Part shown: positions 3,253-60,868 of the stretch, in pieces
Position numbering within the stretch: the stretch's first letter is position 1
Layout: every line of letters starts with the position of its first letter
Assembly (NCBI GenBank): GCA_965209055.1
Contig: OZ242374.1
Span: forward strand, 2,464,001 to 2,528,000
Direction: 5' to 3'
DNA: 64,000 nt
From: Acidobacteriota bacterium
Lineage (GTDB): Bacteria > Acidobacteriota > UBA6911 > RPQK01 > JAJDTT01
Notes under the pieces: generated by a model
What the model saw: the letters and a program-made list of their open reading frames with translations, nothing else
Databases searched by the model: none
What the model was told of the DNA's origin: nothing
Program-made: the position numbers and the translations under genes

Positions 3253-4851
3253 TTAGTCTGGTCCGGCCTCCTTGGCGTGGGTGTAGAGGACATGGCCCTT
3301 TTCGTCGTGGAAGGTGAAATCCATGCGGGCCCGTCCCCCGCCGGTCTGGCCGATCTTCATGATCAGGAAACCGCCGGTGGGTTCCTCGAAATGATAGGGA
3401 TGCTTGATCTTTCCCTCGGGGTCCGACGATTTGGGGTCGCCGGGAAAGAATCCCAGAATCGCATTGGAGTCGTCCATCGCGCCGACGGAGAATTCCTGAA
3501 AGCCGGAGGGGTGGACGGCGTGATACTGCCAGTGCCGGTCACCGCAGACGATCATGAAGCGGTCCGGAGAGAAACCCTTGTCCGTCAGCCAGCGGAAGAA
3601 CTCGTCGCCCTCGGTTTGAAATCCTCCCGGGTTGACGTGGTTGTCGCGCTTTGCGGCGTAGTCGGGTCCCACCATGGGGGTCGCCGAGAGGAGAACCTTG
3701 AAGGTGGCGTCGCTCTCCAGCAGGGTCCGTTGCAGCCATTCCTTCTGTTCTTTCCCCCAGATCGTCTTTTGGGGACCGTCGGGGGAGTCGTTGGGACTGC
3801 GGTATTCGCGTCCCTCCACGATCCAGATCTGCAGGTCCCGGTTCACTCGCCGAGTGGAGTAGGTCACCGCGCCGGACGCCCGTGGATCGGCCACGGGAAG
3901 CTGCTCCCGGAACATCCGCGCGCCGAGTTCATGGGTCGGGTCGTGGCCGGAACCGGAGTGCTTCGGGAAGAGGTTCTCCTTGGGATAGGTTCCCGAATTC
4001 GACTCGTCATAAATATGGATACGGACCGGATTGACCGGATCGGAGTCGTTGAACCGGTAGTCGTGGTCGTCCTTCAACCAGTAGGTGGCCACTCGGGCGA
4101 ACAAGTCCGGGAACCTCTGCTGCGAGAACTGCTCGTGGTACTTCATCCGCAACTGGTGCTGCGTCTCCGCCCGCCCTCTCATGTCCTGGTCGGCGCCGGG
4201 GACGTCGTAGTAGACGTTGTCGCCCAGGCCCACGAAGAAGTCGGGTTCCAAGGCCAGGATGGCGGCCAGAGCGGGATAGCCCAGCTCCTTGTCCGGTCCG
4301 CTGTAGGGTGGTTTGGAACCGTGGCCCGTGTAGTGGAAATAGGTGTAGTTCATGCAGGCGGCCAGGGCGAAGCTGTAGGAGACCTGCCCGTCGGGTCCGC
4401 CCATAGTGGTGAAAATCGCGGGAGGCGATTTCTTGAGCCGCGACTTGTCCGGTCCGTAGACCAGGCGATAGTGGTAGCGGGTCTCCGGCCGAAGCCCTTC
4501 CACCTTGACCTTCACGATGAAGTCGTTCTCCGGGAGGGCGGCGAGCCACGCGGTCCGGATCGGGTCCTTGAAATCGGCCCCGGTTGCCACCTCGAAACGG
4601 GAGATTCCCCTGATCCCCAGGACGCCCGACCAGCGGGGGTCGACGAGACTCTCGGTCGAGGTGAGGCGGGACTGGAGAATCGCCGAAGTATCGTCCACGG
4701 CGCCCGCCATCAGACCCTGGGCCAGTTGCACGGGAAAGGGGTCCCCGGACTGGGAAAAACCCGGATTTCCCATGGCCAGGAAGAGGACAAGAGCGGGGAG
4801 CCGAATCTGGCAGGATCGGCGGGTGATATCGGTGGTCATGGCGTCCTCCAA
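3253..4851 (-). CDS. PhoD-like alkaline phosphatase D family protein (paralog 2)
   Basis: Same motifs; closely similar to the adjacent ORF along its whole length. Confidence 0.85.
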   Translation of the reverse strand: MEDAMTTDITRRSCQIRLPALVLFLAMGNPGFSQSGDPFPVQLAQGLMAGAVDDTSAILQSRLTSTESLVDPRWSGVLGIRGISRFEVATGADFKDPIRTAWLAALPENDFIVKVKVEGLRPETRYHYRLVYGPDKSRLKKSPPAIFTTMGGPDGQVSYSFALAACMNYTYFHYTGHGSKPPYSGPDKELGYPALAAILALEPDFFVGLGDNVYYDVPGADQDMRGRAETQHQLRMKYHEQFSQQRFPDLFARVATYWLKDDHDYRFNDSDPVNPVRIHIYDESNSGTYPKENLFPKHSGSGHDPTHELGARMFREQLPVADPRASGAVTYSTRRVNRDLQIWIVEGREYRSPNDSPDGPQKTIWGKEQKEWLQRTLLESDATFKVLLSATPMVGPDYAAKRDNHVNPGGFQTEGDEFFRWLTDKGFSPDRFMIVCGDRHWQYHAVHPSGFQEFSVGAMDDSNAILGFFPGDPKSSDPEGKIKHPYHFEEPTGGFLIMKIGQTGGGRARMDFTFHDEKGHVLYTHAKEAGPD

Positions 4852-6900: not shown

Positions 6901-9330
6901 ATGCGCCTGACGAGCGACGGACAGAATGAATCCCGGTGGAAGGATTTCATTCGGCGCTGCGGACTCCGGTACGCGGGATTCTGGCTTGTGGTCCTGGCAT
7001 GGGCGGCCTGCTACTCGCCGCTCTTGAGTGGCTTGAGGGTCGTCACCTACGACGCCCTGGCTCAGAATTTCCCCGCCGCCGCGTTTTCCGCGAGAGCGAT
7101 TCAGCAGGGAGATTCACCCCTTTGGAATCCGAACCTCTTCGCCGGGCATCCCGCGTTGTCCGATCCCCAGATGTTCCTGTTCTCTCCCCTGTTCATGCCC
7201 TTGATGGTGCTGGGGGACCCTCACGACATCCACTGGTTCACCCTGGTCGTGGCGCTCCACGTGCTTTTGGGCGGGATCGGCTTTTACGTCCTGCTCCGGC
7301 GTGAGGACGTGGCGTTGTTGCCGGCGGTGCTGGGCGCCGCCGTCTTCATGTTCGGCGGGTACGCCCTGACCCGGCTGCAACACACGACCATGATCTTGAG
7401 CTACGCCTACTTCCCGTGGGCGCTGGTGCTCTTGCGCCGTCTGTTGAGCTCTCCCCGGGTTGGCGTTGCGGCAGGTTTCGGTGTCGCCGCCGGGGGCATG
7501 GCGGCGCACGGCAACCAGGTGGCGTACCTGCTGTCGCTGGTTCTGGCCGCCGTCGCGGCGGCGGCGTTCTTCAGGGCGCCGGACAAGGTGGCATTTCTAG
7601 TGCGGAGACTGCCCTGGCTGGCCGCGGCCGGGATCCTTGCATTCCTGGTTCTGCTGCCCCAGCTCTACGGCATCTTCCTGTTCCTGGATGACAGCAACCG
7701 TCCCCATTACGAGTACGCGTTCGGGGCCCGGCAGTCCATGTGGCCCTATATTCCGGCAACGCTGCTGGCGCCGGACCTCTTCGGCGCTCTCGGCGACAAC
7801 TATGTCGGGGCGGATGATCGGACCGAGTCGTTGTTGTACGTCGGAGGCCTCGGTGTGTGGGTGCTGGGGTTCTGGGGCTTGTGGCGCGGAGTCCTCTGGA
7901 GGCGCCGCAACCTGTTCTTCCTCGCCATGCTGGCGTTTTCGCTCCTGTACATGCTTGGCGACCTGACGCCGGCGTACCGTTTGTTCTACGAAGTCATCCC
8001 CGGCGTCGCGCTCTTTCAGCGGCCCCTGGACGGCGGGTTTCTGCTCAATATCGCCTTGGCGGGCCTGATCGCCCTGGTGTTGGACGAGGTGTTGCGAGGG
8101 GACCGGGAGAGGCTTCCGTCGCGGCCGATGCAATTGGCAGGAAGGGTGTGCCTGGCGTTTCTGGGGACGGCTTTCACAGTCGCCGTATGGAAGGGCGTGA
8201 CTCTGCACCAGGATTGGCGGCCGGTGCCGGAGGCCCTCGCCGCGGCCGGGGCCTGGGTGTTCGCATCCGCAGTGGTCCTGTTTCTGTTGTTGCGTTACCA
8301 ACAACTGCGATGGCCGTTGTCTCTGACCCTCACAGCCCTTCTGGTGGCCAACCTGGGATGGGTGAACCTGAACCGCAGGATCAATGTGGTGCCGACCGGA
8401 AAAATCAGCCATCCCGGCGGCTTGCCCAAGGCCCACCGGCAAATCGTGGAGTTCATCGGCGAAAATACGGCTGCCGGAGAGAGCGGCGCTCCCCCTCGCC
8501 GGGTCGACCTGATTTACGCCGGTGCAGAGATGTCGAATCTGCCCAATCTCTATCCGATTCATTCCATTTCGGGCGCCAATCCGTTTGTATCCGGCCGCTA
8601 CCAGATGTTTGCGGGCAAACGAAACGTCTACTCGGGACCGCCGCTGTTTTCACCCATGATGCCCGGCTATGCATCGGAAGCACTGGACAGTCTCGACGTG
8701 AAATATGTGATCACCGCCCTGGACCTGGAAGAGTACGATTCGACCTACGATGCCGCCGATCTGCCGCTGGTGGAGCGCTTCGCCAACATCTCGGTCTACG
8801 AGAATCCGGATGCGCTTCCCCGCGTACGCCTGCTGAACCGGTTCCAGGTCGCCTGCAGTCGAGAGCAGGCGGCGGAACTGCTGTCCAGCCCTTCCTTCTC
8901 CCACCACGGCAATGCGGTGGTCGAACTGCGGGATGATCCGGTCCCCGAGTTGCAACGAGTCTTCGGCGCCGGAGGAGCCCCGCCGTGCGCTGACGGCTCG
9001 AGTATCGAGATTTCAACCGAGCCGGGCGGCCCGGATCAGGTCCGGATCGTGAACTATGAAAACGACCGGGTCGAGGTGGTGACCGACAGCAGGCATCCGC
9101 GCCTGCTGGTCCTGGCGGATGTCCTCACCGAGGGATGGAAGGCCTCGCTGGACGGTCGGGAAGTGCCGATCCACTACGCCAACTATGCTTTCCGGGGCGT
9201 GTTTTTGCCTCCGGGACACCACGAGATCAGCTTCCGGTTCCGGCCGTTCGACGCCGACGTCGCCGTCCGTGTCCTGCGGAGAATCTTATCGGGCCGCGAC
9301 GAGAACCCGGTGCCGATTCGTTACCGTTGA
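6901..9330 (+). CDS. YfhO-like polytopic membrane protein (GT-C-type glycosyltransferase)
   Basis: PLWNPNLFAGHP motif, many TM helices, C-terminal GWKASLDG...ANYAFRGVFLPPGHH. Confidence 0.85.
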   Translation: MRLTSDGQNESRWKDFIRRCGLRYAGFWLVVLAWAACYSPLLSGLRVVTYDALAQNFPAAAFSARAIQQGDSPLWNPNLFAGHPALSDPQMFLFSPLFMPLMVLGDPHDIHWFTLVVALHVLLGGIGFYVLLRREDVALLPAVLGAAVFMFGGYALTRLQHTTMILSYAYFPWALVLLRRLLSSPRVGVAAGFGVAAGGMAAHGNQVAYLLSLVLAAVAAAAFFRAPDKVAFLVRRLPWLAAAGILAFLVLLPQLYGIFLFLDDSNRPHYEYAFGARQSMWPYIPATLLAPDLFGALGDNYVGADDRTESLLYVGGLGVWVLGFWGLWRGVLWRRRNLFFLAMLAFSLLYMLGDLTPAYRLFYEVIPGVALFQRPLDGGFLLNIALAGLIALVLDEVLRGDRERLPSRPMQLAGRVCLAFLGTAFTVAVWKGVTLHQDWRPVPEALAAAGAWVFASAVVLFLLLRYQQLRWPLSLTLTALLVANLGWVNLNRRINVVPTGKISHPGGLPKAHRQIVEFIGENTAAGESGAPPRRVDLIYAGAEMSNLPNLYPIHSISGANPFVSGRYQMFAGKRNVYSGPPLFSPMMPGYASEALDSLDVKYVITALDLEEYDSTYDAADLPLVERFANISVYENPDALPRVRLLNRFQVACSREQAAELLSSPSFSHHGNAVVELRDDPVPELQRVFGAGGAPPCADGSSIEISTEPGGPDQVRIVNYENDRVEVVTDSRHPRLLVLADVLTEGWKASLDGREVPIHYANYAFRGVFLPPGHHEISFRFRPFDADVAVRVLRRILSGRDENPVPIRYR

Positions 9331-9467
9331 CGGCTCCACCCGTCCGGTTTGGAGGCCTTCGGCCGCCACCGAAAAGGTCCATCGATCCAACTCGTAGCGC
9401 GCCCCTGCGGTATGATGCGCAACGAACGAATCTTGCCCGCACAAGCGGAGGACAGGAGAGACTTCCC

Positions 9468-10460
9468 ATGACCGGTTCGATAGTTACGATTATTTTTTCG
9501 CTCGTGTTGAGTGCCCCCGGTTTCGCCGGCCGGCTTCCCGCGGAGACCGCGGCGGGTCCGGGCCGTCCCGGTTCGGCAGCCGAATCCGCGCCCGAGGGGG
9601 TCCGCTGCAAAGGCCAGCCCCAAGGCACGTCCTGCTGGATGGAGTTGGCCAACCAGCCGGGATGTTACGTCTGGAACAGCTACTTCCAGGAGGACGAGGC
9701 CCTGACCTGGACCGCAGAGTGCGTCGAGGGCTTGGCTCACGGCAAAGGCACGCTGACGGAGGCCTGGGACGGGGGCAAAAAAAAGGAGGAAAAAACCGGG
9801 CGCATTGTGAAAGGAAAGGCACTCGGGAAATGGGTCTACCGCGACCAGGATGGGAACGTCTCGGAGGGCCCGTTCAAGGAGGGCATGCGTCACGGAGACT
9901 GGGTCGAGCGCCTGGCGGGAGGGACCGTCCAGGAAGGGCCGTATGAGGCGGGGAAACGGCAGGGCAAGTGGTCTCTGCGCTTCGCTACCGGGACCGTCAT
10001 GGAGGGCTCGTTTGCGAAGGGGTACCAAGAGGGCAAGTGGGTGTTGCGTTTCGCTAACGGAAACGTCCATGAAGGCCCGTACAAGGTCAACAGGCGTCAC
10101 GGAGACTGGGTCGAGCGCCTGGCGAATGGGACCGTCCAGGAAGGCCCGTACGTGAGAGGGAGACGGCAGGGCAAGTGGGTGTTGCGTTTCGCTTCCGGCA
10201 CTGTGATGGAAGGCCCGTTCGTGGCCGGGAAGCGTCAGGGTCATTGGGTCGAGCGCTACGCGGATGGGGCCGTCCTGGAAGGCTCGTATGAGGCGGGCAA
10301 GGAGCAGGGGCATTGGGTCGAGCGTTTGGCGGACGGGACCATCCAGGAAGGCCCGTATGAGGCGGGGAAGCGCCACGGATGGTGGTTCAAGCGGAGGAAA
10401 GGGGTCGTGGTTGAGGAAGCGTACTTTGTGAAGGGGGAAGGGGCGTGGGGCCAAAGCTAG
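9468..10460 (+). CDS. Secreted MORN-like repeat protein (paralog A)
   Basis: Signal peptide, Cys-containing N-domain, 8 tandem 23-aa repeats GTVQEGPYxxGKRxGxWVxRxAx. Confidence 0.8.
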   Translation: MTGSIVTIIFSLVLSAPGFAGRLPAETAAGPGRPGSAAESAPEGVRCKGQPQGTSCWMELANQPGCYVWNSYFQEDEALTWTAECVEGLAHGKGTLTEAWDGGKKKEEKTGRIVKGKALGKWVYRDQDGNVSEGPFKEGMRHGDWVERLAGGTVQEGPYEAGKRQGKWSLRFATGTVMEGSFAKGYQEGKWVLRFANGNVHEGPYKVNRRHGDWVERLANGTVQEGPYVRGRRQGKWVLRFASGTVMEGPFVAGKRQGHWVERYADGAVLEGSYEAGKEQGHWVERLADGTIQEGPYEAGKRHGWWFKRRKGVVVEEAYFVKGEGAWGQS

Positions 10461-10516
10461 CAGCCCGTGGTAAAAGTCATCACGGCATTCGACCGTCCCT
10501 GCATCCCGGCGGACTG
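10457..10516. repeat. Left part of a palindromic MITE-like element split by island 1
   Basis: Begins CTAGCAGCCCGTGGTAAAAGTC, a 20/22 inverted match to the end of 21341-21458; ends in the 12-bp att core CCCGGCGGACTG. Confidence 0.75.
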
Positions 10517-10685
10517 ATTCCAAAAATTCCGTAAACTATTCAACTTAAAAGAGTTACGAATATTTCTTCGACTCTCTTCCCCCCATTATTTCCACCTGAT
10601 CGAATCGGATGCCATTGGCCCTTCGTGGCCGTAAACGGAGTAACCGTTCGGTCAGGCCGTGGAAGAGCGGTCGGTCGGCATCCGC

Positions 10686-10868
10686 TCAAGCAGTGCGACG
10701 GCCGGTGCCCTCGATACCGTGGGGTAGCCGTCTAGAAACTCGCCGAGCTGGTCGCCGACTTCGAGGTGCGATCAGCATGCGCACCGGAACCCTGGTCCCC
10801 GAGAATACGGGAGTCGTCCAAGATGGCAGGATTTCTGCAGGATTTCTGTTAGTGAGCTTCTCGGTCAT
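10686..10868 (-). pseudogene. DUF433-family antitoxin remnant
   Basis: NRNPAEIL...TPVFSGTRVPVRML matches the DUF433 GxPxxxGTRVPV motif, then degenerates. Confidence 0.55.
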
Positions 10869-10940
10869 TGTGACCTCCACTCGCGTCCGTCCCGTGTATC
10901 GGTCTGCCAAGCACCCACGCTCGCTCGAATGGGGAGTCTA

Positions 10941-13900
10941 CTATGGCAAGCTGGAGGATGACACCAACAGCAATGCGGCGATTCGTCGTGCGGTGTCGGC
11001 GAAGTGCTGAACTTCCTCGGAACGAAGACTCCTGCCCAGAACCTCGTTCTCCCGGTAGGACAACCACTTCTTGAGCACTTGGTAGCCGCCAAGCCGGTAG
11101 TCCCAGACGGCGGAGGGTAGGTTGCGCCAGTACGCCTCCCCATTCAGGTAGACATCGCAGGTGGTCTCACCAAGGACGGCAAGGTGTTCTGCCAACGCTG
11201 CGCGCTCCTCAGGTCGATAGGGACGCTCGACGATGTGGCCTCTGCCGGGCATCACGGCATCGCCCGCTCCGAAGTGGCCCCAGCCCGCGGTCACGGCGAA
11301 GTCCTCGCCCGCCATGTAGCGTCCCGTAACGGTGTCGGGCACCGCGATCTCGGGACGTAGGGGCGTCCCGGTCCCGCTTGACACAGGCAGTTCCGAGTCG
11401 AGCAGTGCGGCGACCATACGGCCTCTGGTCGCTGATCCAGCGAGTGCTTCCGCCGCTCCTTCGGACTCCCCGTCCGGCCAGCCGGGCAGCGGAATGCGCG
11501 GCCATTCCATGCGCAGCGCCCCCGCGTTGGCCTCCCGATACGCTGGATCGTGAAGGGTGGCGAGCACATGGTGGAACAGATCCTCGACACCGAGACCGAG
11601 GCGGGCAAGATACCGTTGCGCCTTCCCCGAGAGATTGGCACGACGTTCCGTGCCGGTTGCCGCGCCCAAGCCGTCCTCGCGAAGCCATGCCGGGAAGCAG
11701 GTGGCGCTACGATCCATTAAATCGATGCACCCGATCTGAGAGATGACTTGGGGCGGTGACCATTCCCGGCGTGGCTTTCGCTGCGTCACAAAGAACTTGT
11801 TTCCCGTGAAGACATGCGGTGGGTAGCGAGGGCTCTTCTCGCGCAGCAGCTTGGTATCGCGTTCCCAATACAGCCACCGGCTGTCGAACGGTCGGTACGC
11901 GTAGGCAACAAACCCCTCTTCAGCGGGTCCACCTCGCGCGAGCAGTGTGTTTCGGACTCCTCGCGCATCGAACCGTCTGGTGTCCTGCATCACGCGTGGG
12001 TAGCGCCGCGCAATCTCTTCGTGCCTCACCATCGGGTCGAAGTACTCCTCGATGCGTGCCCTGAGTCGGTTTAGGTCCACGTCGACGAGGAACTCGTCGC
12101 GACCGGTCTGGACACCCGGAAACGAGACCGGGAACAGGTCGGGCAGCGCGGGCCAATCGAACCAATCGGGGCTCACCGCAGTCTCCGCGAACGGCAGGCC
12201 CAGCGGCAGAAGCGGTGCGACTTCGGAGTAGAGCGTGTCCGGTTCCGCGTCGGCCGTGGCGGTCAACTCCGTCGGTTTGGACTGCCCCCACAAGTGCCGG
12301 AACGCAATGGCTTCGGTGGGTTCGTGGTTCCTCTTGCGCACCAGCGTCGCGATGGCCGTACCCACTTGGATACCGACCGGATCTCCCTCGGTCGAAAAGA
12401 TGCTCGGGTCGGGCGATCCGTCCGGCGCGACCTTGCCCGTCTTGTACTTGTCGCCGTTCAGACAGTCGATCCGGATCGCGTCGAACGCTTCGAGGTAGCG
12501 CTCCCGCATCCCAGTGAAGGACAGCCCGTCGAGCCACGAGTAGTTGGAGATGAAGCAGACGACGCCCTGTCCGGTCTTCTCCGCGATGCGGCGCTCCGCC
12601 ATTCGGAAGAACCGGACGTATAGGTCATTCAGGCCCTGTCCTTCGGGCTTCCGCACGCGCTCTGTCGTGCGGTACGCTTCCGAGAGTTCACGTTCTTCTT
12701 CCACTGCCATGCCCGCGAACCCGTTGTAGGGCGGGTTGCCGAGGATCACCAGGATCGGGACGTCCTGCTTCACTGCTTCCGCGAGGTCGCGCTCCTCTTC
12801 AAGCTCCGGGAACGGCAACGGCTTGGTCGTGTGCGGTTCCCAGCCCGTCAGAGCGTTGGTGAGAAACACCCCGGCGCGCTCCGATCCGTCCTCCGCCAGC
12901 GGTGCGCCCAGATTCTGCATGGTTAGGCCGACCTGCAAATGAGATACGACGAACGGCGCGGGCATGATCTCGAACCCGAACACTCGCTCGATTGCCGCCC
13001 TCCTGACCTCCGCGCCCGCGAGCGCCCCGAGGCCCTGCTCCCCGAGATTGACGGCGATGCGCCGGAGCACCTCTGCCAGATAGGCCCCCGTTCCACAGCA
13101 GGGGTCCAGCACATAGACGTTCTCGGCTGCGAGCCCCGCTGGAATCCCCAGATCGTCCTTGAGCGCCCTGTCCACCCGCGCGACCATGTAGCGGACCACT
13201 TCGGTCGGCGTGTACCACACCCCCAACTGCTTTCGGAGAACAGGGTCGAAAGCTTCCAGGAACGGTTCATAAAAGTACGGCACGGCCTCGCCTTCGTTGA
13301 ACCGTGAGAAGAACGCCGTCCGGTCCACGCGGTCGAGCGCCGCCGATGTCCAGTCCAATACCTCGACCAGGCCGAGCGACATCAACCGGCCCGGGTCGGC
13401 CAACTGTTGGAATAAGGCCCGCAGCACGGGTGCGCGCAGGTGCCAGACCGCCTCGCGCCACCGGAACCGCTGGGGACCGTAGTGGTCCTGGAACAGCGGG
13501 CCGTTCCTGTTCTGCTCGTGGCGGGACCACAGCACCCACGCGGAGAAGATGCCGTAGAACAGCGTCTGGATCAGGGTCGAACGGAAGAGACGTTCCCCGC
13601 GCTCGTCCTCGAAGCGAATCCCGAGCGCTTCCTCCATCGCCGAGCGGACGGCCACAAGCGATGGAACATTCCCCGCGGCCTCGACGCGGGCCAAGCCGTC
13701 GCGGGCGTAGGAAGCCAGCAGCCACGCCAAGTCCTTCGGCTCCGCCAGGGCGGCCCGATGCGACAGCGCCCGCGCTAGATACTCGCCGAGGCCCGCGCCG
13801 ATCTCGCGGGCGAAGGCGCGAGGAGTCTCCACCCGGCGCCAGAAGTCGTCCGCATCCTTGGCCAAGCGGTAGGTTTCGAGCTTGGCTGGGCCTCCCCTCC

Positions 13901-14306
13901 CGTCCGCGCCCACCAAGACGAAATTCCGTAGGTTCGTAACCAGCACCAGCCGGTAACGGCCCCAATAGCGGCTCACCTGATCGGATTCCGCCGTCAACCA
14001 GGCATTGTCACCAACGCCCTTGACCTCGACGACGCCACGCTCTGGAACCTGCCCCGGCCTCGGGCGGCCCCTCTGAACCTGCCTCGCCGTGTACAGGGCA
14101 CAGTCGGGATGGCCAGCCCCCTGATCCGCGGGTTCCAAAACGCAGAACACCTTGGGTCTCAGTGTAGCCCCGACCGCCCGCAGCAAGCTCGCCAGCGCCG
14201 GATAGTACGAGCGCTCGCCCGTAGCGCCGCCCGATGCGCGCACGCGCCGGAGTTCGCCGAAATACGCCTCCACTGCGGCGGCTAACTTCTTGTTCGGTTG
14301 GGCCAT
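10941..14306 (-). CDS. Single-chain restriction-modification enzyme (N6-adenine MTase with type ISP-like specificity domain)
   Basis: N-terminal PD...EVK nuclease motif, VLDPCCGTG (motif I), GNPPY (motif IV), YRPFD and YRLGGYQVLKKWLSYR typical of the ISP C-terminal domain; start at MAQPNKK. Confidence 0.85.
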   Translation of the reverse strand: MAQPNKKLAAAVEAYFGELRRVRASGGATGERSYYPALASLLRAVGATLRPKVFCVLEPADQGAGHPDCALYTARQVQRGRPRPGQVPERGVVEVKGVGDNAWLTAESDQVSRYWGRYRLVLVTNLRNFVLVGADGRGGPAKLETYRLAKDADDFWRRVETPRAFAREIGAGLGEYLARALSHRAALAEPKDLAWLLASYARDGLARVEAAGNVPSLVAVRSAMEEALGIRFEDERGERLFRSTLIQTLFYGIFSAWVLWSRHEQNRNGPLFQDHYGPQRFRWREAVWHLRAPVLRALFQQLADPGRLMSLGLVEVLDWTSAALDRVDRTAFFSRFNEGEAVPYFYEPFLEAFDPVLRKQLGVWYTPTEVVRYMVARVDRALKDDLGIPAGLAAENVYVLDPCCGTGAYLAEVLRRIAVNLGEQGLGALAGAEVRRAAIERVFGFEIMPAPFVVSHLQVGLTMQNLGAPLAEDGSERAGVFLTNALTGWEPHTTKPLPFPELEEERDLAEAVKQDVPILVILGNPPYNGFAGMAVEEERELSEAYRTTERVRKPEGQGLNDLYVRFFRMAERRIAEKTGQGVVCFISNYSWLDGLSFTGMRERYLEAFDAIRIDCLNGDKYKTGKVAPDGSPDPSIFSTEGDPVGIQVGTAIATLVRKRNHEPTEAIAFRHLWGQSKPTELTATADAEPDTLYSEVAPLLPLGLPFAETAVSPDWFDWPALPDLFPVSFPGVQTGRDEFLVDVDLNRLRARIEEYFDPMVRHEEIARRYPRVMQDTRRFDARGVRNTLLARGGPAEEGFVAYAYRPFDSRWLYWERDTKLLREKSPRYPPHVFTGNKFFVTQRKPRREWSPPQVISQIGCIDLMDRSATCFPAWLREDGLGAATGTERRANLSGKAQRYLARLGLGVEDLFHHVLATLHDPAYREANAGALRMEWPRIPLPGWPDGESEGAAEALAGSATRGRMVAALLDSELPVSSGTGTPLRPEIAVPDTVTGRYMAGEDFAVTAGWGHFGAGDAVMPGRGHIVERPYRPEERAALAEHLAVLGETTCDVYLNGEAYWRNLPSAVWDYRLGGYQVLKKWLSYRENEVLGRSLRSEEVQHFADTARRIAALLLVSSSSLP

Positions 14307-14367
14307 CCTGCCTTCCTGGTGATTCGGACGCGCCTCCGCATTGAGGCTGCCCTCTGGCGATTCAATC

Positions 14368-14600
14368 GTGACCGTAAGCACTCTAACAAAGGCGGCGCTC
14401 GTGGAGAACGTGGCCAACGTCGCCAACCTCACGAAGAAGCACTCCGGAAGTCGTCGTCGAGACCGTGTTCAGCAACATCGCCAAGGCGCTTCTCGGCGGG
14501 AGAAGGTCGAACTTCGTGGCTCCCGGCAGCTTTCGCCTCCCGCGCCGCCGAGAGCCGCCAGGAGCCTCAATCCCACGAAGCGGTCCAGCAGGCCGTAGCA
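14368..14600 (+). pseudogene. Integration host factor / HU pseudogene
   Basis: Across frameshifts reads LTKAALVENVANVANLTKKHS / VVVETVFSNIAKAL / EKVELRG / GSFRL..RR..NP. Confidence 0.7.
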
Positions 14601-15069
14601 TCGAAGAACGGTGCAGGCTGGAGCCATCGTCGGTGCCTTGGTCGGCATCGCGGGAATCGTAGTCAGTGTCCTCAGGTTGTACGGTTGACAGCCCTTACGA
14701 AGCTACCGGCTGCCGCTAGTACACAGCGATTTGCGATGCCTGAAACCAATGCCGCAGTGGATTCTCCAGACTGCGCCAGATTGTCCTTTCCGCCGCAATC
14801 TGTTGGTGGAACCCGCGATGTGGCACGCCTGAAGGCGACGGCCGACGTGCTCGGGGATGTGTCCGCGCTCGTTCTGGGTGACCGGGCCAACAGGTGCCGG
14901 TCCTTGCATTAAGTGCTGCGAACTGCGGCTTCTGGAGCAGATGCCGGCGATTAGTTCTCCATGTGGAACCTGCGGCGCACCCGCGCACCCAAACGCCGCG
15001 GACTTGGTATGGCAGATTGCGGCTTCATCACGTTTGTCGCTCGCGGTTCAGCGCGTGAGATCGCCGGAC

Positions 15070-15318
15070 ATGGCAGAGCCGGAGGTTGACGTTACCTTGG
15101 TCTACGCGCCGCAATCTGGGAAACGGTCTTGGCTCCGGCTGACCGGTCGGCGCGACGAGATACCAGCGGGTGATCGGTACCGGTTGCTGATCCATGTCGT
15201 GGTCAAGAGCCTCGCAAAGTATGAAGTCGTCATCGACGTGAAGGGCCGGAATGACGACCCGATTTCTCGCAAAGTCATAGCTGCTCTGGAGCTTGAGTTG
15301 GTGTCCGTGTACGACTAG
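15070..15318 (+). CDS. Hypothetical protein (82 aa)
   Basis: Protein-like composition from MAEPEVDV; converges on and overlaps the stop of the next ORF. Confidence 0.4.
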   Translation: MAEPEVDVTLVYAPQSGKRSWLRLTGRRDEIPAGDRYRLLIHVVVKSLAKYEVVIDVKGRNDDPISRKVIAALELELVSVYD

Positions 15319-15815
15319 ATGGACAGTTCGATTATTCCACTGTCTGCTCCGCGTCCGCACAATAGCCAAATTTGCTCGAAGGGATGTTCACCGAAGATGA
15401 TACTCTTATCTGCAAGATAGGATTGGAAGTCGGCATACGTCCACAGTGGATTGGCGTTTCGAACCAGGAGCCACACTGGAGTCGTACTGTACGTCTTCTT
15501 GCACTTAGACTGAAGCACTCTCGCCAGGCTGTCGCCAATTCGGCTACTCAACGGGGTAAGTCGTGCTTGCTGCTGCTCTTCCTCACTCGGGTAGGAATGG
15601 CCTCGTCTTCCAAGAAGTCTCTTTGCGTCAGATGGGGGACCATATACGTGAGCAACTTCAATGTAGACATCTTCGCCAGCCAATGTGCATCGCGTGTCTG
15701 GGCGAGGGGGTTGGCAGCATTTCTTATACTCTAAGTGGCGTCCGGGATGCCGCCGGTTGTACGCCTCACAGAACTCGATGACCCCGAACTTCTCAAGATC
15801 GGATTTTTCAGACAT
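15315..15815 (-). CDS. Hypothetical protein with PD-(D/E)XK nuclease-like motif
   Basis: PRPDTRC.....VYIEVAH pattern followed by KCKKTY..PVWLLV, as in restriction-endonuclease-like folds. Confidence 0.55.
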   Translation of the reverse strand: MSEKSDLEKFGVIEFCEAYNRRHPGRHLEYKKCCQPPRPDTRCTLAGEDVYIEVAHVYGPPSDAKRLLGRRGHSYPSEEEQQQARLTPLSSRIGDSLARVLQSKCKKTYSTTPVWLLVRNANPLWTYADFQSYLADKSIIFGEHPFEQIWLLCGRGADSGIIELSI

Positions 15816-16007
15816 TCGTTGCTCCGGCGGCTCTCAGTTCGAAAAGCTCGTGTCGTCCACGACATAGGACTACACGCTTGGCAGGTCGCGACTATAGCAG
15901 GCGCACGACTCGGGTGATCACCGCGCTGGCCGCCCATGGGCTGACGACCACGCACGGCTGCAACCGCTACGCGACGCGTAATTACGATCCGTGAAAGTCG
16001 GCTCGTA

Positions 16008-18353
16008 TCACGACTCCATCATGGATGATGCTAGCTGCCGTCGAACACGCTCGATTTCCGTCGCACGAACCTCGGCGGCCTTCGCTTCGGAGGATCTTCC
16101 GAGACCTTCGTCGACCATGGCCAAGAGTCTCCATGTCTGTGCCCTCCAAGGAGCCAGTTCCACCGCCCGTTCAGCGTGACCAATGGCACTGCGAAAATCA
16201 CGCGTTCGCCACCGGAACGAGGCTCGCTGAAACGGAATTTCCCAATATCGTGGATAAAGCGCTTGGGCTTGATCTAGGACTGTTTCGGCTTCCTCGTATT
16301 GTTCGGTCCATTCTTGCAACCGCGCCAAGTAGCAGAAGTCACCCGATTCCCTCAGCTTTTCGTCCTGAACAATTCGAGCAAAGAACTCCACGGCATCGGG
16401 CACAATCACCCGCTTACCGGCCGACGTTATTCTTCCGATGCAGAAACCGTCAGCTATCGTACTCGCTCGCACACGTTCGAGCCTGACAACGTTGTATCGT
16501 TCCCTCAGGTCCGTATCGCTAAACTCGGAAATCTTCTTCAGCCAACCGTCACAGAACTTCAAGCAATCGTGATGGGCGTTGACTCGATCCAAACAACGCG
16601 CCATCAGGTAAGCGATAAAGATACGATCGGAATTATGGATCGGCAGGTCCTGCATCTCGCGGAGTTCGTTGGAGCATTGAGCGTAGGCGGTCATCGCCTC
16701 AAGCACAATCGTCAATTGAAGCCGAGCAGGAAGGTACCGCGAATTATCCTTCTTCGCTTCGCGAAGGAGGCTAGCGGCGTATTTGAATCGTTTCACCGCC
16801 AATGGCCAATCGGTTTCGCGGATGCTCTCAGCTGCCTTGAAATATAGAGTCCCGACCTCTTGCAACGAGTGGACATCACGTTGTTGCGCGAGCCGGGTTT
16901 TGGCCGTCTCGAACGCGTCGTCAAAGGCACCCATCGCGGTTTGTGCAACGAGGAGGTTGCCGGTGAGATCTCGGTCACGACGATATAGTCGCAACCCCTC
17001 AAGTGCGACCGTGGCTGCAGCACGATGGTCAGAGGTTCTAATCAGGGCAAGCGAGAGATTGACGAAGTACTCGGCTGGTTTATCGATCGCAGCTGATATG
17101 CACGCGAGAACTTCAGTTGCCTCGTCGGCGCGGCCGAGGTGGATGAGGCACAAAGCATAGCAAACCGTGACGGCTTGATTGTAAGAGTAGTCTGGGGTGG
17201 CCACCACCATTTCCGGCACGAACAGGCTGCGTAGGATCGCCTCAGCTTTGGTGTAATCACCGACGGCGATGAGGGCGTCGGCTTCCCGCATGAACGGTTC
17301 CAGGTCGGATCCCTCGACAACACGATGAGTGCCCGCGTCGTTGGTTACGCCTCCCGCCACTCTGGAAAGGTCGCGATGAGTCTTTGCGCCGACCATGGAT
17401 ATTACGTATCGGCTAGTGGGTAGGAATCTTCGATAAGCTACCCGCCTTTTCTTCGCAGCTTCGGCGAGGGCAAGATCGATCGAGGCATAGTCAGGCGGTC
17501 TCTTCCTAGGGTCCTTTTCAAGACACTGGCGTATCAACCTCTCGGTGCCGAACGTGGTCTTCTTGAAGAGGCCCCCGAGCGGGGACGGTGCTTGGGACAA
17601 GTGCTTGAAAAGCACCTCGGCCACCGTAGTACCGACGAACGGGCACCTCCCGCATTCCCATTCGTACATGAGGCAACCCAAGCTGTAGATGTCGCTTCGG
17701 TGATCAACGTCACCACCCCTGCCGAGCTGCTCTGGAGAAGCGTAAGAGACAGTCCCCAAGATTTGCCCAGCCGCGGTGAGGCCGGGGTCTCCGCCGTCCC
17801 GTGCGGCAGCGGAGCCGTCGGTTTGCGTCGTGGGGTTGGCGACTGTAAGGGGTCGGGCTAAACCCCAGTCGGAGACGAATGCGAGATTGCGTTCGTCGAG
17901 CAAGATGTTGTCCGGCTTAAGGTCGCGGTGAATAACAGCGTGCTCTTGGTGCGCCCAAGCGAGGGTTCCGACGATACGCGCCATAACCGAGAAAAAGAAA
18001 TCCGGGGATCGGTTCTTCAGGTGTACACGGAGATTGCCACCCGGCATCCAGCGTGAGCATACAACGGGGACTTCATCGATCCGAGTGATGCACAGCGCTT
18101 CGACAACGCCATCACAGGCAGAAAGCGTGGTCCAGACGCGGACTTCACGGAGATATCGGGCCCAAGCGTCAGAATCATCAATGATTTCGCGTTGGATTGT
18201 CTTCAGAGCAAACGAAGCGCTACCCTGCACGACGCGGATGCACTCACCCATGCCGCCCCTCAAGATCCGATCAACCCTGAATTCCGCTGATGGCAATCCC
18301 AGGTGCGCGGCGAGTTCGGGCAGCGTTAGAATCTGACTCGGTCTAATAATCAA
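16008..18353 (-). CDS. Cytoplasmic Ser/Thr protein kinase with C-terminal TPR repeats
   Basis: GGMG, ALK, HRDLKPDNILL, DWG, GTVSYASPEQ, DIYSLG; TPR-like helices; no TM segment seen; TTG start. Confidence 0.9.
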   Translation of the reverse strand: MIIRPSQILTLPELAAHLGLPSAEFRVDRILRGGMGECIRVVQGSASFALKTIQREIIDDSDAWARYLREVRVWTTLSACDGVVEALCITRIDEVPVVCSRWMPGGNLRVHLKNRSPDFFFSVMARIVGTLAWAHQEHAVIHRDLKPDNILLDERNLAFVSDWGLARPLTVANPTTQTDGSAAARDGGDPGLTAAGQILGTVSYASPEQLGRGGDVDHRSDIYSLGCLMYEWECGRCPFVGTTVAEVLFKHLSQAPSPLGGLFKKTTFGTERLIRQCLEKDPRKRPPDYASIDLALAEAAKKRRVAYRRFLPTSRYVISMVGAKTHRDLSRVAGGVTNDAGTHRVVEGSDLEPFMREADALIAVGDYTKAEAILRSLFVPEMVVATPDYSYNQAVTVCYALCLIHLGRADEATEVLACISAAIDKPAEYFVNLSLALIRTSDHRAAATVALEGLRLYRRDRDLTGNLLVAQTAMGAFDDAFETAKTRLAQQRDVHSLQEVGTLYFKAAESIRETDWPLAVKRFKYAASLLREAKKDNSRYLPARLQLTIVLEAMTAYAQCSNELREMQDLPIHNSDRIFIAYLMARCLDRVNAHHDCLKFCDGWLKKISEFSDTDLRERYNVVRLERVRASTIADGFCIGRITSAGKRVIVPDAVEFFARIVQDEKLRESGDFCYLARLQEWTEQYEEAETVLDQAQALYPRYWEIPFQRASFRWRTRDFRSAIGHAERAVELAPWRAQTWRLLAMVDEGLGRSSEAKAAEVRATEIERVRRQLASSMMES

Positions 18354-18745
18354 TTGGAGAATCTCGCTGTCACTTGCGTCGTTTCGCGTGTTCTAGCGCA
18401 TGCATACCGGATGAGCCGATCCGACAGGCCCCAGCCGCATGTATCAGCGCTCGTCTGGTGACACCGATACCGCACGATAGTGAACGTGTGGATTCGATGG
18501 CAACTGGTTCGATCCGCAACATCTCCGTCGTCTTGCGCCGAATCTTCGTTGCTGCCGACTGCATACTCGGAGGCGACGGGTGGCTCCCGACACGTTTGGG
18601 TGTCATGAGCCAGCCTATCCAATGTAATACATTGGGGCTGGTGAGGGGATGCTACGCTACCCTTCGAACCCCGCTCGAAGTTCCGGCCAGTGGAGCCGGA
18701 GGCCCGACCGGCCGGTTGATCCGCCGCGTTCTCAGCAGCGCTTCG

Positions 18746-18868
18746 AGGCCTTCCCGCCAGGGATATATTGGACGGGAGCGACCCCCCCAGGGGGTGTGGC
18801 GCAGATGTAAATTGCGCCACACCCCCGCGCCCGCACCGGGCAGGAAAAAGGGGGGGTCGCTCCCGTCC
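18746..18868. promoter_or_regulatory. Nested inverted-repeat element, putative oriT-like site (copy A)
   Basis: Perfect 19-bp IR 18770-18788/18850-18868 enclosing a perfect 14-bp hairpin 18790-18826; related to 19582-19714 and 58182-58317. Confidence 0.5.
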
Positions 18869-19079
18869 ACCTCCGATTTCCCCGTGCGGGCACGGCGGAG
18901 CCGGGAATGTGGCCGTAACTGCATGAGCGACAAAGAGATCGGGGAAAGCGGAGGTGAAAGTCAAAAGGCTGCCGGGATGTAAGTCGCGTCCTTTGTCTCC
19001 CTTACACTCCCGGATCGACACCGGGAAGCCCTTTCACCTCCCCATGAACCTCGTCGATCCGCAAGTGACGCAGCTGTTG

Positions 19080-19400
19080 CAAGCGCTGGCGGCGCTTGGC
19101 CTTTCCCGGCGGCTGTTCCCGTGCCGCCACTATGCCGGCCATGTCCAGGGACGGCGCCGGTACTTCCCCCGCAAGCTCCCCCTGGCCCTGGAGGAGGACC
19201 GGGCGACCTTCGTCTATGTCGATCCCGGTCGGGATACCGACTCGGAGCTGCTTTCGTGGAGGGCGGAGCACGCCCCGATCTGGGCCGGGCTGCGCGCACG
19301 AGAGCGCCCGGTGCACGTGGTCGCGGTGGCCCGCGACGACCTCCGGCGGGAGCGGGCCGGGAAGATCCTGCGGCGCTGGGCCAGCCCGGACCCCGAGGCC
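19080..19400 (+). pseudogene. Fragment of the Rep/relaxase-like domain of the 58609-60573 protein
   Basis: LGLSRRLFPCRHYAG...YFPRKLPLALEEDRATFVYVDPGRDTDSELLSW is nearly identical to the C-terminal domain at about 58860-59170. Confidence 0.75.
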
Positions 19401-19714
19401 GTGTTCCACTTCCGGTGGGCCGGTCCGGAGAAGTCCCAGGATGTGAAACACACATGGGGGAGTGTGTTCCACTCTCGGAGCGGCGAGTTTCACAAGCCCC
19501 CTTTCCGTCATCTTGTTGAGCCCCTTCGGGTTGTCCCCGTCCTTCCGGAGGAGGCGCGCCCGGACGGGGAGTCCGGGTAGGAGAAGTGAGCGACCCCCCT
19601 GTTTTCGTGCCTCGCACGTCACGCAAGCGCTGCCAGTGTTCCACTCCGTTGGACACCAGCGCGGCATGCGCGGGGGGGTCGCTCACTTCTTCATTGATCC
19701 CTGCGGGAAGGCCT
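19400..19714. repeat. About 310-bp non-coding segment repeated in inverted orientation at 58182-58500 (copy B)
   Basis: Near-identical sequence; 18-bp IR AGAAGTGAGCGACCCCCC at 19582-19599/19673-19690; three GTGTTCCAC boxes. Confidence 0.8.
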
Positions 19715-19955
19715 CTGCGAAGATGGGGACGGGAGAATTCCAGTCTGTCGTGAGAGAATGCCCCGCATGGGAGAGGACAACGTCCAACGGCCTATCCCGA
19801 ACCCTTGGCCCGGTCTCACCAAGCCAACACAGGCGAAATGGCGGGCTTGTTTTTTCGGGAATTCTCGAAGACTGCGCCTGAGTGGGTTTCAGGCGGCGAA
19901 TCGGCGGGCTATGGCTTCGCGCAGGCCTTCAAGCAGGCGCTCTGCGCACGGCGGA

Positions 19956-21179
19956 TCAACGGAGCAGTCCGGCCGCCGAGTCTCGACTCTCGCCAGCCAG
20001 GTAGTCCGCCCATTCGTCCATGAGCCGACGCCGGCGCTCGAACAGGTCCGTGCGTCGGTAGGCCGCCTCGATCGGGTTGCGCACCTTGTGCGCCAAAGCC
20101 GCCTCCGCCACCTCGCGCGGATGATCCGTCTCCTCCGCCGCCCAGTCCCGGAAACTCGACCGGAACCCGTGCGGTACCGCCGCGATCCTCAACCTCCGGA
20201 GCAGCTCCGCCATCGCCGTGTTCCCGACTGGCTTTCCGCCCACGCTCGGAAACACGAGGGGTCCGATGCCACCGAGGGCCCGCGCCTCCTCCAGGATCTC
20301 CAACGCTCGCCGGGACAACGGGACCCGGTGCTCCCGATTCCCCTTCGTACGCCGGGCCGGGATGGTCCACACCCCCTCCTCCCGGTCGATCTCCGTCCAC
20401 GCGGCCCTGCGGACCTCGCCGGAACGTGTCGCCGTCAGCACCAGGAACTCGAACGCCAGCTTCAACACCGGCCGCGCGTTGGACGCCTGCACCGACTGGA
20501 GCGCGGCTGCAACCTCGCGGTGGGGCAACGCCCGCATGTGACGCACTACCTTCCCCTGCGCACCAAGCACCGGGCCGATCCGGTCACAGGGGTTGTCGGG
20601 CCGAAGATCCATCGCCACGGCCCACTCCAGGACCGCGCGGATGCGCTGGCGCAGCTTCCGGGCCGTGGAGGCCTTCTCGTGCCAGATCGGAGCGAGGATG
20701 CCGATCACGTCGGCACTCGTCACCTCCGCAATCGGCATCTCGCCGATGCGAGGGAAGGCGTGGTATTCCAGGCTCCCCAGCCAGAGCCGCGCATGCCGGG
20801 CGGAGCGCCAGCCCGGCCGCAGTTGCTTCCAGACCGTCCGGGTGGCGTCCGCGAACGTGGGCATCGCGACGGACTCCCGCTTCCCGGCCCGGGGATCGCC
20901 CCCCTCGCGGGCCAGCTTGCGGTTGGCGAACGCCTTCTCTCGCGCTTCCCTGAGCGAGACGAGGGGGAATCCACCGAGTCCGAGCTCGGCTCGGCGGCCA
21001 CGGATCGTGAGGCGTTGAATCCAGCCCCGGCTGCCCGTGGGCCGGACGTCGAGATAGAGACCCTGGCCGTCGCAGTAGCGTCCGGCCTGACTCACGTTGC
21101 GGACAAAGACCGGTGTCAGGGCGTTGAGGGGATGCCGGCCGCGCGGCTTGCGTTTCGGGGGACGTTTCACAAGTGCCAT
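19956..21179 (-). CDS. Tyrosine recombinase/integrase (P4-like, arm-binding domain)
   Basis: DGQGLYL arm domain; catalytic R (TRSGE), K (TKGNR), HGFR, LAH, AY. Confidence 0.95.
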   Translation of the reverse strand: MALVKRPPKRKPRGRHPLNALTPVFVRNVSQAGRYCDGQGLYLDVRPTGSRGWIQRLTIRGRRAELGLGGFPLVSLREAREKAFANRKLAREGGDPRAGKRESVAMPTFADATRTVWKQLRPGWRSARHARLWLGSLEYHAFPRIGEMPIAEVTSADVIGILAPIWHEKASTARKLRQRIRAVLEWAVAMDLRPDNPCDRIGPVLGAQGKVVRHMRALPHREVAAALQSVQASNARPVLKLAFEFLVLTATRSGEVRRAAWTEIDREEGVWTIPARRTKGNREHRVPLSRRALEILEEARALGGIGPLVFPSVGGKPVGNTAMAELLRRLRIAAVPHGFRSSFRDWAAEETDHPREVAEAALAHKVRNPIEAAYRRTDLFERRRRLMDEWADYLAGESRDSAAGLLR

Positions 21180-21340
21180 ACCCACCACTATACCCCCACA
21201 ATATCGTGGATGCAAGGGGACGAAGCGGATCGGTATGGGACACCATTGGGCGTCAGAAATCCTGATAAATCAATGAAAAACAGACACTTATGTACAGCAC
21301 TGGACATATCTGGACGCTATGTCCATCTCACAAACTACAG

Positions 21341-21458
21341 CCCGGCGGACTGCGTTGCGATTCGGGCACATACTCAAGGTATGCACCCGAATCGCGCCTT
21401 GTCCGGCGGGCGCAGGAACGGTCTCGGTGCTCGCGGGACTTTCACCACGGACTGCTAG
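21341..21458. repeat. Right part of the palindromic MITE-like element
   Basis: Starts with the att core, contains the central hairpin GCGATTCGGG...CCCGAATCGC, ends GACTTTCACCACGGACTGCTAG. Confidence 0.75.
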
Positions 21459-21559: not shown

Positions 21560-22162
21560 ATGTCCAAGGAGGCCGTCCCGCATCATCCCGTTCACAGATT
21601 CATCTCGGCGCGCTGGAGTCCATACGCCTTCTCGCGGCGGCTGATCCCTCGCGAAGATCTGCTGTCCATCTTCGAGGCGGCGCGCTGGGCGGCATCCTCG
21701 TTCAACGAACAGCCCTGGCGCTATCTCGTCGCGAGTCGCGACCGGAAGGAGGAATTCGAGAAGGTCTTGAGCTGCCTGCTCGAGGGCAACCAGGCCTGGG
21801 CCCGCGAAGTTCCGACGCTCGCGCTCGGGTGCATCAGGACAAGCTTCACCCACAACGGCCGGTTCAACCGCGTCGCACAGCACGATCTGGGACTGGCTTC
21901 CGCGAGCCTCACGTTCGAGGCGACGAGCCGGGGAATCTACGTGCATCAAATGGCCGGAATTCGGCCCGACAAGGCGCGGGAGGTATTTTCCATCCCGGAC
22001 GGGTTCGAGGCAGTAACGGCGCTGGCGCTCGGCTATCGGGCCGATCCCGGCGCTGGAGCCCCGAAATTGCGGGCACGAGACGAAGGTTCGCGCACCCGCC
22101 GGCCCCAGAGCGAGTTCGTGTTCGGCGCCGAGTGGGGAAAGCCGGGTCTTGGATCCACGTAG
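21560..22162 (+). CDS. Nitroreductase family protein
   Basis: RWSPYAF, AARWAASSFNEQPWR, HQMAG motifs. Confidence 0.9.
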   Translation: MSKEAVPHHPVHRFISARWSPYAFSRRLIPREDLLSIFEAARWAASSFNEQPWRYLVASRDRKEEFEKVLSCLLEGNQAWAREVPTLALGCIRTSFTHNGRFNRVAQHDLGLASASLTFEATSRGIYVHQMAGIRPDKAREVFSIPDGFEAVTALALGYRADPGAGAPKLRARDEGSRTRRPQSEFVFGAEWGKPGLGST

Positions 22163-35268: not shown

Positions 35269-35478
35269 GGGCTCAATTCTATGCGCCTTCCTGGGACTTC
35301 GTCACGAACGAAATGTGAGAAATAGACGAATTTCGGGAATTCGGCGATTGGAATGCCGCCGCTCCGGGTTCTTTCGATGGCAACACGGCGCCGGAAAGGA
35401 AAATGGTGGGCCTAAGTACTACCGAAAAACAATCTTAAGTAATTGATTTCAAAGAAAAAATGGAATCTATCTTTGTTA

Positions 35479-60781: not shown

Positions 60782-60868
60782 GCCCGGGTGGCGAAACCGG
60801 CAGACGCGCGGGACTTAAAATCCTGTGGAGGTTCTCCCTCCATGTGGGTTCGACTCCCACCCCGGGCA
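60782..60868 (+). tRNA. tRNA-Leu (anticodon TAA), CCA not encoded
   Basis: Acceptor stem GCCCGGG/CCCGGGC-A, anticodon loop CT-TAA-AA, long variable arm, GGTTCGACTCC T-arm. Confidence 0.9.

Follow-up and report, generated by a model that had tools for sequence, protein, structure and literature searches.

Integrases of the P4 type usually target tRNA and tmRNA genes. Other members of the same broad integrase family use non-tRNA sites, as do the dusA-specific integrases and that of SGI1, which is found at trmE. A separate set of elements homes to dispersed palindromic repeats, among them IS1397 and ISKpn1 (REP/BIME), IS110/IS1111-family elements (REP) and the Neisseria Nf prophages (dRS3). The locus described here lies in a 64,000-nucleotide stretch of the genome of an Acidobacteriota bacterium (GenBank assembly GCA_965209055.1, contig OZ242374.1, positions 2,464,001 to 2,528,000), which we call the window and to which all positions refer. 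It holds a P4-type integrative element, an island of 10.8 kb, which has its attachment site in one arm of a MITE (miniature inverted-repeat transposable element) and has left this target split. It was known already that some transposases home to REP-type repeats and that integrases of this class can use genes other than those of tRNAs; what this locus presents is a MITE arm as the site of an integrase island, and in the open-access literature we found no report of a tyrosine-integrase island targeting a MITE. With the dusA and SGI1 integrases it shares an integrase class that is not bound to tRNA genes, but their sites are single-copy, conserved protein-coding genes, whereas the target here is a dispersed mobile repeat. 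With the elements that home to REP or dRS3 it shares the logic that a repeated, intergenic, hairpin-forming sequence would offer many harmless landing sites, as an earlier, sequence-only reading of this DNA had proposed; those elements, however, rely on DDE or DEDD transposases, while here a lambda/P4-type tyrosine integrase comes with a multi-gene island.

The island is bounded by a 12-bp direct repeat, CCCGGCGGACTG, whose two copies form the attL and attR cores (Table 1). A search allowing up to one mismatch returns just these two matches in the window, a count that is not significant by itself, as at least two matches also arose in 25 of 100 shuffles. The similarity continues beyond the 12 bp, with 16 of 18 bases identical between 10499-10516 and 21335-21352. 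Scripted excision, joining 10457-10516 to 21353-21458, yields 166 nt that form a near-perfect single long hairpin, with a minimum free energy of -104.9 kcal/mol for the + strand and -121.8 kcal/mol for the - strand. The rebuilt element ends in CTAG and its terminal inverted repeats match at 20 of 22 positions (90.9% over 22 with blastn-short). Over all 166 positions it is 97.6% identical to an intact copy in another genome (locus L041), and 97.0, 92.7 and 92.7% identical to the copies at L031, L016 and L003; the copy at L012 matches at 91.1% over its full length. Since intact copies elsewhere can be aligned with the rebuilt element along its whole length, the excision junction restores a real, independently attested sequence. 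The fold of an intact copy is far from chance (z = -14.3 as RNA and -8.8 as DNA, with none of 200 shuffles folding as well). The sequence-only reading had described, from the 12-bp repeat, a rebuilt element of roughly 166 bp, with CTAG-ended terminal repeats matching at 20 of 22 positions and nested arms around a central hairpin; the match to the intact copy bears out the reconstruction, the count of matching terminal positions is the same on the rebuilt element, and the predicted fold has the nested arms and the central hairpin.

Each of the two MITE parts is also recognised separately by nhmmer, the left one over hidden Markov model (HMM) positions 2-59 at 10458-10516 (E = 1.2e-14) and the right one over HMM positions 42-166 at 21335-21458 (E = 7.3e-29). 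Neither blastn-short nor nhmmer found a further copy of the element inside the window, and the right half had no match in the plasmid collection. The attR core together with the three preceding bases (21338-21352, CAGCCCGGCGGACTG) is an imperfect 15-bp palindrome, with 6 of 7 positions paired. This 15-mer equals CAGCCCG, the outermost 7 nt of the left MITE end (10461-10467), plus G, plus CGGACTG, the outermost 7 nt of the right end (21448-21454); it resembles both transposon tips set side by side, and the internal site of the MITE itself is one base off (CATCCCG...). Either a coincidence or a subterminal copy of the transposase site may account for this.

To define the family of the hairpin, genomes were scanned with the 19-nt pattern of its terminal repeat, which gave at least 121 loci in about 80 metagenome-assembled genome (MAG) assemblies, counted by accession prefix. 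A copy was called near-full when it covered at least 150 of the 166 positions at E ≤ 1e-10 with a profile made from full copies. Near-full MITE copies are present at 36 of the 121 listed loci, corresponding to 35 distinct sites (L059 and L060 overlap), which is a lower bound; 29 loci carry a transposase homologue, and 56 carry other elements with the same terminal repeat that are longer, truncated or at contig ends. Several genomes contribute two to four separate sites to the listed loci, for example CBDANA01, with L059/L060, L111, L117 and L121. The copies end sharply at CAG...CTG, with flanks unrelated to one another, and the terminal columns of the 28-copy alignment are invariant or nearly so (the length of 166 nt counts both CTAGs). 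Identical 4-mers flank 16 of 30 copies (11 CTAG, 3 CTAA, 1 ATAG and 1 TCAG), and in a further group the two differ by one base. Pairs other than CTAG, such as CTAA and ATAG, are found, and the 4-mer is therefore a duplicated target and not part of the element.

The transposase loci point to a predicted autonomous partner. At these 29 loci (24 of which were grouped by clustering of their open reading frames, ORFs) an ORF of 450-490 codons starts just inside the terminal repeat and encodes DUF772 and DDE_Tnp_1 domains, above the Pfam cut-offs. Sixteen complete insertion sequences with the same termini as the MITE could be delimited (1442-1535 bp, for example L001), and in 15 of them the flanking 4-mers are identical (12 CTAG, 2 CTAA and 1 TTAG). 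For IS5, a target duplication of Py-T-A-Pu, most often CTAG, is reported (PMC5493358). The present element is like IS5-family MITEs and whole-length palindromic repeats in its small size, terminal inverted repeats, 4-bp Py-T-A-Pu duplication and hairpin spanning the whole element. It is unlike them in its 19-nt terminus, identical across several phylum labels, in the unusually clear compensatory change of its stem, and in its partner transposase, which in NCBIfam scores best to IS1182 (180 bits, cut-off 270) and then to IS5 (90 bits, cut-off 140). Because of this ranking, with both scores below the curated cut-offs, we use the label IS5/IS1182-type. The element is dispersed, has a duplicated target, shares its termini with a transposase-encoding insertion sequence and fits no Rfam family, and for these reasons it is, by sequence criteria, a bona fide MITE of an IS5/IS1182-type insertion sequence, whose transposase is predicted to mobilise it. 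The description of the target as a dispersed, palindromic, MITE-like repeat was thus sound, and with 35 distinct near-full sites among the listed loci the repeat is not single-copy.

The conserved fold bears on another explanation, in which the hairpin would terminate transcription or be the gene of a structured RNA, targeted much as a tRNA gene is. In the alignment of 28 full-length copies (A1), RNAalifold predicts 44 pairs, 19 of which show compensatory changes on both sides (element positions 24-145). Paired cells amount to 94.9%, compared with 83.5% in shuffles, and the covariation score is 0.294 versus 0.107, a value reached by none of 500 shuffles; partners slid out of register give 0.04-0.07. 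The shuffle control overstates the significance because the copies are related, a weakness from which the slide control is free. The terminal helices are invariant, and the variable, compensating helices are numbers 4-6. In addition, 26 of 28 copies are more stable when read as the window's - strand (mean -101.6 versus -92.7 kcal/mol), a preference that may come partly from shared ancestry, and the element directly follows a stop codon. These features would suit an RNA gene, but no Rfam family reaches its gathering score (13.9 bits at the junction, threshold 41; 24.5 bits for an intact copy, threshold 64), the copies stand in unrelated contexts with co-varying 4-bp duplications, their termini are common to a transposase-encoding insertion sequence, and some copies lie within predicted coding sequences. 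We consider an RNA gene or terminator very unlikely. A known structured RNA family was likewise rejected, as the only Rfam families found in the window are two tRNAs. The covariation of the stem, unusual for the interior of a transposon, suggests selection on the hairpin, as RNA or as single-stranded DNA, or concerted evolution of the arms; the MITE may act as an RNA hairpin, which is compatible with the element being a transposon.

The integrase encoded next to attR is intact, with all three P4-type domains and with catalytic motifs recognised by eye. The Pfam domains PF13356 (Arm-DNA-bind_3, 7.5e-17), PF22022 (Phage_int_M, 2.8e-24) and PF00589 (Phage_integrase, 4.9e-15) all score above their cut-offs, and the protein matches NCBIfam PRK09692 at 2.6e-42; its relatives in the PDB cover the N-terminal and central domains only. 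TATRSGE, HGFRSSFR, LAHK and AYRR are the motifs that we take to contain the catalytic Arg, His-x-x-Arg, His and Tyr. The gene is transcribed away from attR, starting 125 nt from the core if the TTG codon is used, or 161 nt from it if the start is placed, according to the N-termini of homologues, at the Met corresponding to 21179. The attP arm between the gene and the core is conserved at the DNA level, since its translation is kept in homologues with N-terminal extensions, none of which reads through as far as the core. A comparison of the two 200-nt attP arms for arm-type repeats was unconvincing, with only three recurring 8-mers and none common to both arms. The integrase lineage is abundant and unusually uniform: 7960 of 8000 scored candidates match at E ≤ 1e-30, and the best 120 clusters (P0004-P0123, formed at 90% identity) share 78-95% of their residues with the window protein, whose identity with any integrase in the phage collection is at most about 40%.

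These results lead us to favour, by a modest degree, a history of two successive insertions, that of the MITE and then that of a P4-type integrase island by site-specific recombination into the MITE arm. In the first step, a non-autonomous MITE of 158 bp would have inserted at a CTAG, duplicating it, where the upstream MORN-like gene has its overlapping stop codon. In the second, a circular 10.8-kb element with the integrase, a Type IIG enzyme and a kinase would have entered the left MITE arm, attP recombining with the matching 12-bp stretch (16 of 18 with its flanks) at element positions 49-60. Such an event would leave the core at both junctions and the integrase about 125-161 nt from attR, and we infer that the integrase catalysed it. 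A perfect and short repeat could also be the target-site duplication of a transposase that inserted the island, with the integrase as a passenger. We regard this as extremely unlikely: no inverted repeats were seen at the island ends, none of the island ORFs was recognised as a transposase, the similarity continues imperfectly beyond 12 bp, as expected of an att core but not of a duplication, and an intact integrase stands at the usual distance from the junction.

The architecture is that of P4-type islands in tRNA and tmRNA genes, with the same three-domain integrase at 125-161 nt from the junction and reading away from it, a short direct repeat at both ends, AT-rich arms and defence cargo. 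It differs from these in that the island lies in the non-coding arm of a transposon, where the others occupy the 3' end of an RNA gene, and does not rebuild its target; in that the identity is just 12 bp (16 of 18 with flanks); and in that the target is multi-copy and fast-evolving. The same window also contains a canonical island of the P4 type, about 27 kb long (35404-62406). The last 14 nt of its tRNA-Ile (TGGTGGGCCTAAGT on the + strand), at 62393-62406, are repeated at 35404-35417 (blastn-short E = 0.02), and its integrase, int2, starts about 140 nt from the tRNA 3' end, a core-to-integrase spacing like that of the MITE-borne island; the two integrases are 31% identical. The repeat at 35404-35417 is followed by AT-rich DNA, and the GC content falls to 0.47-0.58 over 35-48 kb. 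Among the cargo of the second island there would be an ADOP permease, a MacB-type ABC exporter and a sigma-54 two-component system; the island's far boundary is uncertain because this cargo looks rather like host DNA.

Whether the MITE-borne sequence is also the regular attB of the integrase is a separate matter, on which we hold the chances to be about evenly balanced. The other course would be a one-off insertion at a secondary site, the regular attB lying elsewhere, for example in some conserved locus such as a tRNA gene, and the MITE being merely a look-alike host. Several results weigh against regular use of the MITE. Helices 5 and 6, where the family varies most, contain the core (element positions 49-60), and at the homologous place in the 28 aligned copies this core is exact in one (L003), has one mismatch in three (L041, L031 and L016) and two or more in 24. 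No MITE split at positions 49-60 was found among the 121 listed loci, and none of these loci shows similarity to the integrase by tblastn (80 have 2-kb flanks and 41 have at most 300 nt); the window flanks and the island are unlike all 121, which thus hold neither the same island nor an orthologous empty site. When ORFs crossing attR (82 aa on the + strand and 80 aa on the - strand) were used to query the protein libraries, a junction between island arm and MITE appeared in 0 of 23, 0 of 6 and 0 of 42 rows of MITE-derived ORF matches, in lists that overlap. Moreover, the window's own genome is not among the listed loci. To these points is added the usual preference of P4-type integrases, which the window's other one follows in its tRNA gene. 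The tests for occupied copies have low power, since loci with the right core are scarce and MITE copies are seldom called as ORFs.

Other observations speak against a one-off insertion. Between the cores all 12 bp agree, and so do four of the six adjoining bases. By eye, the attP region (21216-21352 plus 10517-10560) does not look like the 3' end of a tRNA, and at either junction ARAGORN and Rfam report no tRNA, tmRNA or other Rfam family, in agreement with the earlier proposal that the target is not a tRNA gene. The integrase lineage also seems to occur two to three times per chromosome, which would be easier with a multi-copy target. Among chromosome-scale contigs of equal size, several integrase clusters are found for the sizes 4839169 (three clusters) and 6077182, 6039435 and 3653534 (two each), with pairwise identities of 83-97%. 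If equal size means the same contig, there are probably two to three integrase paralogues per chromosome, which would be explained by a multi-copy attB. Equal contig size is, however, a mere proxy for the same chromosome, and tRNA genes present in several identical copies can likewise hold near-identical integrase paralogues, as at E. coli pheU/pheV and in the asn tRNA islands; both considerations weaken the argument. We judge a one-off secondary insertion to be a substantial possibility, though one that falls somewhat short of probable. The proposal of a dispersed repeat serving as attB with many landing sites has therefore held in part: the repeat is dispersed, but its regular use is no more than an even chance, given a core that is exact in one of 28 copies and no second occupied copy among the listed loci and ORF matches.

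With the core exact or near-exact in few copies, only a young MITE subfamily could serve as target. Library ORFs contain ...IPADC..., and as the codons for it fit the core, the core-bearing subfamily itself seems to be dispersed. A wider scenario, which we put forward tentatively and consider rather improbable, is that a very abundant and highly conserved lineage of Acidobacteriota P4-type integrases gave up tRNA genes as attachment sites in favour of one arm of an IS5/IS1182-type MITE; each burst of the MITE would then supply new, near-neutral attB sites, several related defence islands could share a chromosome, and the fast, compensatory evolution of the helix with the core would make integrase specificities diverge.

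Some candidates for broken copies were set aside. The half element at L059 (1998-2056) is a plain truncation, and the partial matches that begin at about HMM positions 51-59 (L034, L081, L108, L046, L047, L100, L118 and L104) are weak alignments to longer elements sharing the terminal repeat and do not mark island junctions. The MITE-ORF matches in the protein libraries are translations of intact or internally rearranged copies, except for P0168 and P0176, which match over short repetitive stretches only.

Table 1 Features of the window that bear on the split MITE, its island and the second integrase (a dot marks features without a strand)
Feature	Position	Strand	Remarks
Upstream host gene, secreted-looking protein with 23-residue MORN-like repeats	9135-10460	+	69-nt DNA repeats
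Left CTAG, MITE target-site duplication	10457-10460	.	same 4-mer at 21455-21458; co-varies between ends in other copies
Left MITE part: terminal inverted repeat CAGCCCGTGG..., left arm including att core	10461-10516	+
attL core, first CCCGGCGGACTG copy, element positions 49-60	10505-10516	+
Inserted island, 10,824 bp (10,836 bp if one core is counted)	10517-21340	.	AT-rich just inside both cores
Predicted Type IIG restriction-modification enzyme, 1163 aa, single chain	10941-14432	-	Pfam, PADLOC
Ser/Thr protein kinase, 781 aa, C-terminal TPR repeats	16008-18353	-	Pfam Pkinase 7e-31 + TPR
Small inverted-repeat element, unrelated to MITE, terminal repeat ..GAGCGACCCCCC	18769-18869	.
Second copy of small inverted-repeat element, inside island	19582-19690	.
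P4-type tyrosine integrase, 419 aa from TTG start	19956-21215	-	three Pfam domains
Integrase-proximal arm of former attP, AT-rich	21216-21340	.
attR core, second CCCGGCGGACTG copy	21341-21352	+
Right MITE part: central hairpin, right arm, right terminal inverted repeat ...CCACGGACTG	21353-21454	+
Right CTAG, MITE target-site duplication	21455-21458	.
Downstream host gene, nitroreductase family	21560-22162	+	Pfam Nitroreductase 3.8e-17
Third copy of small inverted-repeat element, outside island	58206-58317	.
tRNA-Leu	60782-60869	+
int2, P4-type integrase	60980-62251	-	NCBIfam PRK09692 7e-76
tRNA-Ile(GAT)	62393-62469	-

The GC content of the island is uneven, from 0.55 to 0.71 per kb. Its largest protein matches the PADLOC model REase_MTase_IIG (1.6e-83) and the Pfam families N6_Mtase, Eco57I and Type_ISP_C (3.8e-40); the recognised domains belong to the methylase and C-terminal specificity parts, and no separate nuclease domain or motif was found. 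The kinase matches PADLOC PD-T4-6 (9.8e-46) and mad6 (1.9e-37), as well as NCBIfam MAD6 (1.2e-21, below the cut-off), and by sequence similarity it resembles defence-associated kinases. No family in PHROGs or Pfam was found for the remaining small ORFs of the island. In addition, a small inverted-repeat element occurs three times in the window; its copies are about 100-112 nt long, variable inside, and end in the terminal repeat (A)GAAGTGAGCGACCCCCC. Exact GAGCGACCCCCC has six matches in the window, all of them termini of this element, where 1.6 are expected by chance. That copies occur both inside and outside the island suggests that the island has long resided in this host or came from a related one.

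The MITE stands between two host genes of the same direction, which its insertion at the stop-codon CTAG left intact. The TAG that ends ORF 9135-10460 is at 10458-10460, within the left CTAG, and the true start of this gene is likely Met112, near 9468. The sequence-only reading was correct in placing the stop of the upstream gene in the TAG of the element, while its MORN label is weak: Pfam MORN_2 matches at E = 0.13 only, and the LIC20035 adhesin of NCBIfam at 7e-09, below the cut-off. The nitroreductase gene begins 101 nt past the MITE. We rejected the idea of the MITE as a two-way terminator between convergent genes, the actual downstream gene being this nitroreductase on the + strand. An enrichment of MITE ends on the stop codons of long ORFs was also not convincing. 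Among 60 ends, counted by reading, the duplicated TAG or TAA terminates a frame no shorter than about 86-100 codons at about 16, compared with about 12 and about 10 in the other frames, and high-GC DNA yields long spurious frames, which makes the difference unpersuasive.

The labels of the MAGs holding the listed loci, which are bin labels only, are mostly Acidobacteriota (Vicinamibacterales, Bryobacterales, Terriglobia). The exact 19-nt terminal repeat is also present in MAGs with the bin labels Planctomycetota, Myxococcota/"delta proteobacterium", Binatia, Syntrophobacter, Gemmatimonadales and Brocadiaceae (L006, L010, L027, L029, L033, L044, L048, L051, L061, L073, L083, L087, L090, L099, L103, L104, L113, L115 and L116). 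This distribution points to horizontal spread of the insertion sequence and MITE family, or to binning errors. Locus L032 (2001-3674) is a longer element with the same termini that holds a nested IS630-type insertion sequence (transposase with DDE_3 and helix-turn-helix domains, about 2261-3424) with its own terminal repeats, as well as a second CTAG-bounded palindrome. This stack of mobile elements directly follows an RNase J gene, the stop codon of which lies in the duplicated TAG.

Among the palindromic repeats known to span a whole element (ERIC, YPAL and the Rickettsia RPE), RPEs occur in-frame in proteins, and the present MITE is similar to them in that some copies are read through in predicted proteins. 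This is because its net insertion of 162 nt equals 54 codons and one frame is free of stops. In the protein libraries (P0124-P0177), dozens of 'proteins' are translations of this MITE (...QPVAKVVTAFDRPCIPADCVAIRAHTPGMHPNRALSGGRRNGLGARGTFTTDC...), and read-through is seen in otherwise plausible genes, for example P0154, P0159 (outer-membrane-protein-like), P0170 (dehydrogenase-like), P0161 and P0165 (transposase-like), with labels guessed by eye. The translation of P0124 implies, from the protein alone, a MITE copy in which about 35 nt, beginning at the att core, are duplicated internally in tandem. This copy follows a small ribbon-helix-helix-like ORF, and its contig (7012273) is equal in size to that of the integrase homologue P0018.

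Even if the insertion happened only once, the locus shows the nesting of mobile elements in a well-resolved form, and the MITE family is worth describing either way, with its 19-nt terminus across phyla, its stop-free insertion of 54 codons and its compensatory stem. If the MITE-borne site is the regular attB, the locus would clearly exemplify a tyrosine-integrase island with a target made and multiplied by a transposon. The integrase and its 12-18-bp core would then form a compact system with natural multi-site targets, and island finders anchored on tRNA genes would miss a whole class of islands in soil Acidobacteriota. For these bacteria, such a site would explain several near-identical integrases per genome and would give defence islands many harmless entry points, the additional and largely neutral landing sites being confined to the young, core-bearing subfamily; one parasite would be using the copies of another as landing pads.

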